In this document: piece by piece, positions 31,380-33,456 of the stretch
Layout of the letters: every line of letters starts with the position of its first letter
Position numbering within the stretch: the first letter of the stretch is position 1
Assembly (NCBI GenBank): GCA_001001795.1
Contig: LCLB01000001.1
Location: 8,249 to 43,351, forward strand
Length of the DNA: 35,103 bases
Source of the DNA: Parcubacteria group bacterium GW2011_GWF1_45_5
Lineage (GTDB): Bacteria; Patescibacteriota; Minisyncoccia; UBA6257; Brennerbacteraceae
Direction: 5' to 3'
Program-made: the position numbers and the translations under genes
Notes under the pieces: model-generated
The model's input: the letters and a program-made list of their open reading frames with translations, nothing else
Database searches by the model: none
What the model was told of the DNA's origin: nothing

Positions 31380-31410
31380 ATCAAAAACAGCCCTCTGGGC
31401 TGTTTTTGAT
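31380..31410. terminator. Bidirectional intrinsic terminator between the convergent transglycosylase gene and rnpB
   Basis: Perfect 14-bp inverted repeat ATCAAAAACAGCCC-tct-GGGCTGTTTTTGAT. Confidence 0.8.
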
Positions 31411-31754
31411 AGGTTCGTAAGCCGGATTCTGTTTCTAAGCGATCATTTATCTAGCCCCGACGTTACCGTCGGGGTCAAGCAACCACTCCCAACTCTTTGT
31501 TCAGCTGTCCAAAAAGTTGGGCACGAGTTTTGTACCCCGTAAGGATTTTGCCGTTTCACCCCCGATGTTGCCATCAGGGCTCGCCCCTTGAAAATCTTGG
31601 GGCGCTGTAATACTTTCGCATTCCAGCGTCTCTGCTCGCACCTCTGTCCCGACGCGATGTCGTGGCGGTGGGTGTTACCCACTACGTTCTCGCTTAAGGC
31701 GAGAGGTATCCGGACTTTCCTCTCCGACGTTGCGTCGGAGCGATCACTCGACCT
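31411..31754 (-). ncRNA. rnpB: RNase P RNA
   Basis: Minus strand reads GAGGAAAGUCCGG near the 5' end, GGGUGAAACGGC internally and AGAUAAAUGAUCGC...AACAGAAUCCGGCUUAC at the 3' end; the ends pair (P1). Confidence 0.95.
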
Positions 31755-31760
31755 GTATAT

Positions 31761-31855: not shown

Positions 31856-32170
31856 ATGAAAAAAGATATTCATCCAACATATTATCCAAAAGCCCAGGTT
31901 ACCTGCGCGTGCGGGGCGGTTTTTACCATAGGGGCGACAAAGCCGGCGTTTGAGGTAGAAATTTGTTCCCATTGCCATCCGTTCTATACAGGGAAAGAGA
32001 AGATAGTTGACGTTGCGGGGCGCGTAGAAAAGTTTAAAGCGCGTATGGAAAGAACAAAAGACGTTAAAACAACGCGTGCGGTGAGCAAGCGGGCAAAACG
32101 GGTTATAAAAACCGAGAAAAAAGCGAAAAAACAGGCAGGAGAAGAACCAAAGAGAAAAAAGGGCAAGTAG
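31856..32170 (+). CDS. rpmE: 50S ribosomal protein bL31 (Zn-binding type, basic C-terminal tail)
   Basis: [30 protein letters not shown]. Confidence 0.96.
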
Positions 32171-32243
32171 CAGATACCATGGTCATATACGACATGAAAC
32201 GTGCCGTTTTTTGTTTTGCATTTTCTCGTTACAATACGATATG

Positions 32244-32393
32244 CCCCGTAGTGAAACTTTGACGAAAGTGTCTGCCGAGTGGATAGTCAGTAATTACTAC
32301 TGGGCGGTTAAAATAACATTGTATTAATCCTATTACTCACTGAAAGTAATAAATAAACACTTTGACCCATCCAGTCAAAGTTCTACTACGGGG
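32244..32393. mobile_element. 150-bp MITE-like / structured element with terminal inverted repeats, at the prfA start codon
   Basis: Left CCCCGTAGTGAAACTTTGAC, right GTCAAAGTTCTACTACGGGG (18/20 complementary); TATG on both flanks (32240-32243, 32394-32397). Confidence 0.6.
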
Positions 32394-32394
32394 T

Positions 32395-33456
32395 ATGCGC
32401 GAAGAATTCAAAAAAATACTTGAGGAATACCGATCTCTTGGATTGCGCCTGGAGGATCCTGAATTTCTGAAAAAGGGGCAAGAGTATGTGACGGCGAGCA
32501 AGCGTTTCGCGGAATTACAAGAGCTCGGCTCATGTCTTACCAAATACCACGATTTCGAACGGCGCCTGGATGAAGCTGTTGCTATGGCAAAACAGGAATC
32601 CGATCCGGAGTTGAAAATCATGGTGCAACAGGAAACCGATGAGCTTTCGAAAACTTTAGAAAATTACGAACAGGAATCATCCCGCTTGTATGCCGTGTTT
32701 CAAGAACCGAAAGAAGCAGACCAAACTCATAAGGAAATGATTCTTGAAGTACGGGCAGGGACGGGCGGGGATGAAGCGGCTCTTTTTGCCCGTGATTTAT
32801 TTTCCATGTACGAACGGTATGCACTCAATCATTCTTGGGACATTACGCTTATTCATGAAAATAAAGATGAGCTTGGGGGATATAAGGAAATTGTCGCGGA
32901 GGTACGCGGCAAGGGAGCATACGACGTATTTCAGCACGAACAGGGAGTCCATCGTGTGCAGCGGATTCCCGAAACCGAAAAGTCCGGACGGATACATACG
33001 TCTACCGCCACGGTTGCGGTTCTGCCTGTAGTGAAAGATGTCAATATAGAAGTTCAAGATAAGGATTTAGAGATCGAGTTTATCCGGAGCAGCGGTCCCG
33101 GTGGTCAAAACGTCAATAAATTATCGACCGCTGTGCGCATGAAACATATTGCGACAGGGGTTACCGTGTTCTGCCAATCGCAACGCCATCAGCACCAAAA
33201 TAGGGAAAAGGCCCTCGAGATTTTAAAATCGAAGCTGTATCAACGCGAACTTGAAGAACGGCAACAAAAAGCGACTGCGGCGCGACGCGCACAGGTCGGG
33301 ACAGGAGAACGTTCGGAAAAGATACGTACTTATAATTTTCCGCAAGACCGGGTGACCGATCACCGTATCAATCAATCGTGGAAGAATATGAGCCGCATTA
33401 TGAACGGTGATCTTGACATTATTTGGGCCGCACTCCGTGCGGCCCCTCCATCATGA
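32395..33456 (+). CDS. prfA: Peptide chain release factor 1
   Basis: EVRAGTGGDEA, VHRVQRIPETE (PxT), SGPGGQNVN, RSEKIRTYNFPQDRVTDHR. Confidence 0.95.
   Translation: MREEFKKILEEYRSLGLRLEDPEFLKKGQEYVTASKRFAELQELGSCLTKYHDFERRLDEAVAMAKQESDPELKIMVQQETDELSKTLENYEQESSRLYAVFQEPKEADQTHKEMILEVRAGTGGDEAALFARDLFSMYERYALNHSWDITLIHENKDELGGYKEIVAEVRGKGAYDVFQHEQGVHRVQRIPETEKSGRIHTSTATVAVLPVVKDVNIEVQDKDLEIEFIRSSGPGGQNVNKLSTAVRMKHIATGVTVFCQSQRHQHQNREKALEILKSKLYQRELEERQQKATAARRAQVGTGERSEKIRTYNFPQDRVTDHRINQSWKNMSRIMNGDLDIIWAALRAAPPS

Follow-up and report, generated by a model that had tools for sequence, protein, structure and literature searches.

The present study concerns a window of 35,103 nucleotides (contig LCLB01000001.1, positions 8,249 to 43,351 of the forward strand) from Parcubacteria group bacterium GW2011_GWF1_45_5 and, within it, a 150-bp inverted-repeat stretch lying directly before prfA, the gene for peptide chain release factor 1 (RF1). 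This stretch (window positions 32244-32393) is, with high confidence, a non-coding transposable element, i.e., a miniature inverted-repeat transposable element (MITE), of a Patescibacteria-wide family, inserted on the prfA start codon. A search of the same taxonomic family with the element returned matches to its two ends only, 25 times in one genome, and these matches were 120-150-bp units with the same ends and with 4-bp direct repeats differing between copies. Moreover, the RF1 proteins of relatives align with the prfA product from residues 1-5, showing that the prfA frame starts where theirs does.

The element at the prfA start codon

Read directly in the sequence, the spacer between rpmE and prfA has the layout TACAAT-acga-TATG-(150 bp)-TATG-cgc. 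Its features and the two flanking genes are given below in window coordinates; genomes, contigs and loci carry the labels G###, C# and L###, respectively, with G000 denoting the window's own genome.

31856-32170, + strand: rpmE (ribosomal protein L31), upstream neighbour of prfA (ORF, open reading frame; order kept in relatives)
32230-32235, + strand: TACAAT, a -10-like hexamer 5 nt before the first ATG (sequence), perhaps the original leaderless promoter of prfA
32240-32243, + strand: TATG, upstream copy of the 4-bp target duplication (sequence; duplication rule of the family)
32241-32327, + strand: 28-codon ORF running from the orphaned first ATG into the element and ending in TAA (ORF listing)
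32244-32393, no strand assigned: very probable non-coding element (MITE) of 150 bp, not 151, corresponding to G000:C1:40492-40641; only its ends match other copies
32244-32263, + strand: left terminal inverted repeat CCCCGTAGTGAAACTTTGAC, the 'GA-type' end, CCCCGTAGT-GA-AACTTTGAC (repeat search, family logo)
32295-32304, + strand: internal TACTACTGGG, a degenerate third end-like motif (repeat search)
32359-32381, + strand: subterminal hairpin ACTTTGAC-ccatcca-GTCAAAGT beside the AG-type end, with arms at 32359-32366 and 32374-32381 (repeat search)
32362-32389, + strand: outward promoter-like TTGACC (32362-32367)-16 nt-TACTAC (32384-32389), 5 nt before the prfA ATG (direct reading)
32374-32393, + strand: right terminal inverted repeat GTCAAAGTTCTACTACGGGG, the 'AG-type' end, with the reverse complement CCCCGTAGT-AG-AACTTTGAC (repeat search, family logo)
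32394-32397, + strand: TATG, downstream copy of the duplication, its ATG (32395-32397) being the prfA start codon (sequence)
32395-33456, + strand: prfA, intact, 353 aa (domain matches, alignment with relatives)

The two arms of the element are 20 bp long and complementary at 18 of 20 positions as DNA (23 nt at 87% with the flanks counted), and the two unpaired positions are GA versus AG at positions 10-11, a mismatch that is a feature of the whole family and not decay. The sole ORF of the element, of 28 codons, starts at the orphaned ATG, leaving the element short and non-coding; this ORF is a by-product of the insertion and bears no sign of being a gene. The internal TACTACTGGG may be left over from a short element that was older or nested.

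A preliminary description of this DNA had placed a 150-bp inverted-repeat element exactly on, and duplicating, the TATG of the prfA start, with which the sequence agrees. Its structural details were likewise recovered: the RNA fold reproduces the 20-bp closing stem, the AAAGTGT/ACACTTT extension and the TATTACT/AGTAATA hairpin, the inverted-repeat search locates both arms of the local hairpin in the right arm, and the 28-codon upstream ORF closed by TAA is seen in the sequence as well as in the ORF listing. The weak outward TTGACC-16-TACTAC can also be read in the sequence, though the promoter scan makes no call there.

The product of prfA matches the PCRF (E 1.6e-56) and RF-1 (E 5.2e-41) domains. 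A second RF1-like fragment lies at a contig edge of the same genome (G000:C34:68-691, - strand) and is 53% identical to residues 141-348; the GC content of C34 is 41.7% versus 44.6% for C1, and the fragment could be a paralogue or bin contamination. Upstream of the locus, a bacterial RNase P RNA of class A (31402-31759, - strand, 117.7 bits) fills the space that separates rpmE from the ORF upstream of it. The host genome is a metagenome bin of 657 kb in 51 contigs with 96.6% completeness, and the metagenome runs that contain the window are labelled groundwater or soil.

Copies and ends of the family

Among 201 genomes of the order, 8 matched a pattern built from the two ends and none its reversed control; the pattern recovered 22 copies in one genome of the same family (G006). 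A stricter two-end pattern, applied to species-representative genomes, gave at least 121 stretches, which hold 122 elements among the matches listed, and the titles of these matches are mostly Patescibacteria, Parcubacteria, Paceibacterota and similar. All counts of elements, duplications and target sites below refer to the matches listed. Copies with 4-bp duplications at other gene starts, for which the preliminary description had proposed a genome-wide look, were found as well (e.g., at frr).

The ends share the 20-bp consensus CCCYGTAGT-(GA or AG)-AA..., and in 119 of the 122 elements one end is of the GA type and the other of the AG type, as found by a search pattern that permitted other combinations. 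Positions 14-20 are variable between elements, yet equal at both ends of the same element in 113-120 of 122, and from position 21 inward the two ends of each element are unrelated. Since the end logo agrees up to position 20 and the ends are unrelated from position 21, the repeat is exactly 20 bp long with a constant two-base mismatch. The combination of a constant GA/AG mismatch with variable positions that match each other would fit recognition of the element as a folded single strand.

In many copies a small GC-rich hairpin stands just inside the AG-type end, which in the prfA element is the one at 32359-32381. The hairpins at this place (L006, L011, L014, L030, L066 and others) are often of the GCGAAGC or CGCAAAGCG kind, both presumably unusually stable DNA mini-hairpins. 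Head-to-tail arrays were seen at loci L014, L017 and L068 of G006, where neighbouring units share one 4-bp repeat (e.g., ...GGG-TATA-CCCC...), and the same loci contain very short units of 67-69 bp that hold little beyond the two ends and the hairpin.

Target sites

An exact 4-bp duplication was identified for 99 of the 122 elements, comprising TATG/CATA (42), TTGA/TCAA (26), CAAG (6), TAAA (5), TGAA (5), TATA (4) and others (11), while the genome-wide 4-mer shares of TATG/CATA and TTGA/TCAA are 0.8% and 1.2%, respectively. Of the 47 duplications that bear an ATG, 42 begin, in the direction leading away from the element, an ORF of 80 aa or more; the locus ends too early in 2 cases, and the ORF is shorter in 3. 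The corresponding start-codon expectation is 31% (binomial P 8e-17) under a crude 'non-disruptive site' model, which takes from the window's genome only, with ORF-based gene calls, those TATG sites that do not break a called ORF. The TTGA sites read TTGAC in 23 of 26 cases and have a TAnnnT -10-like box 16-18 nt further on in 19 of 26, compared with baselines of 18.5% and 11%, respectively, for intergenic TTGA in the window's genome. Selection against harmful insertions alone cannot yield two specific tetranucleotides, and a mechanistic preference for TATG and TTGA targets is therefore likely. In either case the duplication restores TTGA or ATG beside the gene, so that the promoter box or the start codon stays usable.

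A non-autonomous element that targets TATG starts and keeps the gene intact had been proposed beforehand, and this much stands, given the same ends elsewhere, TATG/CATA at 42 of 99 duplications and the intact RF1 frame. As the sole rule, however, TATG-start targeting is too narrow, because the TTGA(C) of -35 boxes is a target as well (26 of 99). A leaderless start was considered as a common feature of the TATG targets and rejected, only some of them having a -10-like hexamer 3-9 nt upstream. In three different genomes (L105, L125 and L145) an element sits on the rpsL start codon (protein beginning MPT(I/V)(H/N)QL). Several other targets also begin with MP..., so that the target reads TATGCC, like the junction TATG-CCCC.

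Coding relatives and the GIY-YIG nuclease

Widening the gap of the two-end pattern to 151-450 across the 201 genomes uncovered two elements of 309 and 313 bp, each with one ORF of 87 or 90 aa whose protein matches the GIY-YIG domain (Pfam PF01541, E 9e-17 and 1.5e-18); the reversed control of this search matched 3 genomes, and isolated matches can thus be chance. Two further coding elements with GTAGT-type ends (G059:C69, 317 bp, and G000:C4, 318 bp) bring the total to four (309-318 bp), each carrying a single nuclease gene of ~87-105 aa. The end of the G000:C4 element matches that of the prfA element at 15 of 20 positions. The ends are physically linked to the nuclease gene. The expectation that a transposase with the same ends would be found was thus borne out in that a gene does lie between them, but it encodes a tiny GIY-YIG nuclease and not a classical transposase.

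A search with the nuclease revealed 10 homologues in G000 and 2-7 in each of four further genomes, many of them in 278-320-bp units with inverted repeats, including units of other end families. The catalytic residues Y4, Y6, Y17, G19, R27, H31 and E63 are invariant in 8 proteins, and the closest solved relatives are the UPF0213 proteins 1zg2 and 1ywl (E 1.8e-7); judged by its sequence, the nuclease is of the Ssn (site-specific single-strand nuclease)/UPF0213 type. In a sister sub-family, the coding element on C7 (426 bp) and the non-coding element on C44 (252 bp) of the window's genome have the left end in common and agree at 148 of 153 right-hand bases, by which comparison they are a parent and derivative pair. 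The nuclease gene of coding copies on a start codon is co-oriented with the host gene in 5 of 5 cases (a small, unsystematic sample, with one of the five from another end family), so that the host promoter would transcribe it. Non-coding copies face either way relative to the host gene without bias (19 vs 18). Other small GIY-YIG genes of G000 (on C20, C6, C38 and C25), which have different ends, directly abut tRNA genes, and one of them is flanked by duplicated tRNA halves.

Copies in the window's own genome

Similarity searching of the window's genome with the whole element returned the prfA element itself only, because the interior is unique and only the ends are shared; an end-based search then found further copies, which are listed here together with those of the sister type.

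G000:C33:6001-6125 (L220): non-coding, 125 bp, same GTAGT-type ends, on the frr start codon with CATA flanks (RRF domain, E 1.3e-46)
G000:C29:244-365: non-coding, 122 bp, sister-type ends, inside a TTGACT-16-TATACT promoter (at the -35 box)
G000:C44: non-coding, 252 bp, sister-type ends, at a contig end
G000:C4:21814-22131: coding (nuclease), 318 bp, GTAGT-type ends, at the 3' end of a host gene
G000:C7: coding (nuclease), 426 bp, sister-type ends
G000:C13:4541-4851: coding (nuclease), sister-type ends, on the argS start codon

With prfA and frr, two translation termination and recycling genes of one genome have such inserts. In the C4 element, the first bases of the end, CCGGGTAG, re-create the last codons of the host gene and supply a stop that replaces the original CCGGGTAA, and the flanking repeat is only ~3 bp long (GGA).

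Alternative explanations for the locus

The element folds strongly as RNA (-56.4 kcal/mol, z -7.0, equalled by 0 of 200 shuffles), the start codon is placed at the base of the stem and a short upstream ORF is closed by TAA, all of which would suit an evolved control of RF1 synthesis by a structured 5' leader or RNA switch, the other option offered by the preliminary description. This explanation is nevertheless close to refuted. The minus strand folds almost equally well as RNA (z -5.25), as expected of a DNA palindrome, and the DNA fold is of similar strength (z -5.9). Rfam 15 gave only the RNase P RNA for the whole window at the gathering score, and only chance-level matches (E 3.9-9) for positions 32150-32450 at E up to 10, i.e., no credible match on the element to any of its families, 6S RNA, leaders and riboswitches included. 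The order rpmE-prfA was found in 4 of 6 genomes of the same family (those whose loci were read), and the spacers of these four, ~50-120 nt long, contain no sequence like the prfA element. Furthermore, the interior of the element has no match beyond the 20-bp ends in any of the fetched loci or in its own genome, while the ends are those of a mobile family present at unrelated genes. The element is thus neither a single copy conserved in relatives nor a known non-coding RNA, but one of many copies, and it is absent from the four relatives.

The four relatives belong to other genera, with RF1 only 50-54% identical, and their spacers are for this reason not alignable with that of the window; what they show is absence at the locus and not a true empty site. 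A metagenome-bin assembly of 51 contigs, in which repeats often break or mis-join, could be suspected of an artefact or chimera at the repeat, but this possibility is negligible, since the junctions recur in independent assemblies from four further runs. All four have contigs covering the element, with 0-1 differences at the junctions: one contig of the first run spans the whole element (32175-32851), the second and third runs cross each junction by separate contigs, and the fourth run crosses the right junction only. No contig of the four runs skips the element, and the insertion at prfA therefore appears to be fixed in the population, within the limits of low-depth assembled contigs.

Concerning the expression of prfA after the insertion, no Shine-Dalgarno signal is seen ahead of start codons in the window's genome (G 12-17% at -12 to -5). 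Of its 593 ORF-called genes, 60% have a T in front of the ATG, and TAnnnT hexamers are most frequent at a distance of 6 nt upstream of the start (51 vs a background of ~20). These signals make it plausible that prfA was leaderless and transcribed from TACAAT before the insertion. TACAAT is not called by the promoter scan as it has no -35 box, nor is TTGACC-16-TACTAC, as TACTAC is without the final T. Given that the element appears fixed and the gene is intact, we infer that prfA is still expressed, either on a transcript that starts upstream and traverses the element or from the weak outward TTGACC/TACTAC. Compatible with the MITE explanation, the element could furthermore have been co-opted, its right end giving a new promoter to a leaderless prfA, or translation of the 28-codon ORF opening the stem and so coupling to RF1 translation. 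The hexamers and their 5-nt distance to the ATG mirror the upstream TACAAT-5 nt-ATG, the genome has leaderless-type signals in place of Shine-Dalgarno sequences, and the element became fixed although prfA should be essential. Co-option is nonetheless improbable, because TACTAC is without the conserved last T and drew no promoter call, and other start-codon copies present either end to the gene (19 vs 18) with no shared outward promoter. A general outward promoter at the element ends was likewise rejected, as there are no common hexamers there.

What moves the family

The element entered the four bases TATG that hold the prfA start codon and duplicated them, with one TATG staying with the old upstream region (including TACAAT) and the other heading the intact RF1 gene. 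For the mobilisation of the family, the following course is proposed. The nuclease, supplied in trans, would mobilise the non-coding copies, and its substrate would probably be the element in the form of a single-strand hairpin. The coding copies, which have no obvious promoter and sit co-oriented behind host promoters or genes, would leave expression of the nuclease to the host. Taken jointly, mobilisation by the nuclease in trans, action on a single-strand hairpin and expression from host promoters form an account that we favour slightly, by association: apart from the nuclease, no gene was found between such ends, and each of the different end families has a homologous nuclease of its own.

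Several points weigh against this account, against the site statistics given above and, as regards the empty site, against the MITE explanation as a whole. To our knowledge, GIY-YIG enzymes are hydrolytic nucleases, none being known to join DNA strands. The ends of G000:C4 differ from those of the prfA element at 5 of 20 positions, including positions 3-4. Matched ends that vary by sub-family are also expected from descent from masters with perfect repeats and are no proof of folding. The counts of target sites include several copies per genome and are thus not independent, at least 5 loci overlap loci seen earlier, the neutral expectation is rough and comes from one genome, and selection against disruptive insertions adds to the start-codon enrichment. 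No empty site was found among the four relatives, in the metagenome scan or in the contigs of the four runs; the metagenome scan with RF1 gave just one relative, which at 59% identity is too distant, and the runs consist of assembled contigs of depth 2-5, which drop rare variants. In addition, G006, the genome richest in copies (>20), has no GIY-YIG gene between matching ends in an assembly that is 94% complete, rve-domain genes occur in 3 of 5 genomes (G000, G006 and G059), and Y1 (HUH) genes occur in 3 of 5, namely the genomes with most copies (G006, G059 and G102), being absent from G000 and G004. Contigs of G006 that start inside a repeat (L018 and L019) were considered as a source for the missing coding copy and set aside as uninformative, ~98 common bases running past the element end.

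The last three of these points, on G006, rve and Y1, together with the 20-bp inverted repeats and the fixed 4-bp duplication, which are a classical DDE mark, would favour a MITE moved by a conventional DDE or HUH transposase that is encoded elsewhere or lost, with the GIY-YIG gene as a passenger or a homing selfish gene. This alternative is rather unlikely, as no transposase ORF was found between such ends, the nuclease is the sole gene in the four GTAGT-ended elements, and several other end families likewise enclose only a nuclease gene. Of the transposase profiles tried (PF01609, PF00872, PF13843 and PF00665), the DDE profiles PF01609 and PF00872 each matched 0 of 5 genomes; PF13843, of interest because CC... 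ends with a 4-bp duplication might suggest IS1380 or piggyBac, also matched 0 of 5, but its control was silent too and the result is hence uninformative. In six fetched regions, 4 Y1 ORFs (from regions of G006, G059 and G102; a fifth Y1 region had no ORF of at least 100 aa) and 1 rve ORF were without such ends nearby. Moreover, elements of the rve type have CA at their ends, and those of the Y1 type leave the target unduplicated. Carrying mobilisation by the nuclease one step further, the family might represent a new transposon class, with an autonomous form of ~310 bp, an Ssn-like GIY-YIG enzyme as its sole protein, a single-strand hairpin route and a choice of TTGAC/TATG at gene starts; this is put forward as a tentative proposal that falls short of probable.

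Relation to known systems

Correia repeat-enclosed elements, the MITEs of Neisseria, are ~100-150 bp long, non-coding, bounded by inverted repeats with a TA duplication and present in many copies, and they often lie beside gene starts, where they can alter promoters or mRNA structure. The prfA family is likewise short, non-coding, multicopy and near gene starts, with inverted repeats and a short duplication. It differs from them in that its duplication is 4 bp (mostly TATG or TTGA) instead of TA, its targets are start codons and -35 boxes with high specificity, its ends bear a constant GA/AG mismatch, and its coding relatives carry a GIY-YIG nuclease in place of a DDE transposase. IS200/IS605 elements and the repetitive extragenic palindromes (REP, or mosaics of them, BIME) associated with RAYT are very small, and their ends are recognised as folded single-strand hairpins by a tyrosine Y1/HUH enzyme; they make no target duplication and have no terminal inverted repeats, and their non-coding hairpin derivatives owe their multiplication to an enzyme gene present in single copy between the same repeats. 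The prfA family is similarly small and has non-coding hairpin units, and it would share the recognition of a folded single strand. Unlike these, it has a 4-bp duplication, and its ends do not enclose the Y1 ORFs seen in 3 of 5 genomes. DDE insertion sequences that make 4-bp duplications include the IS5, IS1182, IS701 and IS1380/piggyBac types, from which the prfA family is set apart in that no DDE transposase gene lies between its ends.

The Ssn enzymes (Chenal et al. 2025, PMC11893778) are site-specific nucleases that come with NTS/SRM hairpin repeats on both sides and cut single-stranded DNA only, next to the hairpin. According to that article, the ssn gene is flanked on both sides by a repeat scattered over the genome, a layout that its authors liken to an insertion sequence, and the family is defined by cd10448 as the top CDD assignment (PMC11893778). 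The words 'MITE', 'target site' and 'Patescibacteria' each have 0 occurrences in its text, which reports no duplications or miniature derivatives; its Discussion cites IS200/IS605 and REP/BIME-RAYT (PMC11893778). As in the Ssn layout described there, the coding relatives of the prfA family hold a single-domain GIY-YIG protein of ~90-100 aa whose gene lies between repeats; as distinct from the Ssn hairpins of ~30 bp, the family has 20-bp terminal inverted repeats, a unit of 120-320 bp and a 4-bp duplication, and its ends, CCCYGTAGT..., differ from the NTS motif published in PMC11893778. Repeats that fit the Neisseria NTS motif, as given in that article (GTCATTCCCGCG-nnn-GCGGGAATC), flank the GIY-YIG homologue of L089 (G059:C49), which is 40% identical to the nuclease labelled P0001. 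NTS-like repeats by the same motif were also seen on C46 and C48 of G000, one of them within or beside an rve-domain gene on C46. The full texts of the literature searched contain no description of inverted-end GIY-YIG elements in these bacteria, and this family of mobile elements is apparently undescribed.

Significance

The family unites inverted ends and a 4-bp duplication with a tiny GIY-YIG protein as sole cargo and a preference for start codons and -35 boxes, a combination undescribed in the literature searched. If the proposed class is real, its ~310-bp autonomous form would be the smallest known self-mobilising element, and its coding copies would draw on a host promoter for their expression, with the host gene kept usable by the duplication. 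Should the nuclease indeed drive movement, the family would offer a new transposition chemistry and a natural recogniser of promoters and start codons, and a mobile-element origin would become possible for the Ssn nucleases.

For the host, the gene of an essential translation factor carries a 150-bp hairpin between its upstream region and its start codon in every run examined. The inserts create false upstream ORFs and long 'leaders', and gene-start calls in Patescibacteria must therefore account for them. With non-coding inserts at prfA and frr and a coding one of the sister sub-family at argS in a single 657-kb genome, these elements are a real factor in the gene-start organisation of ultra-small bacteria.

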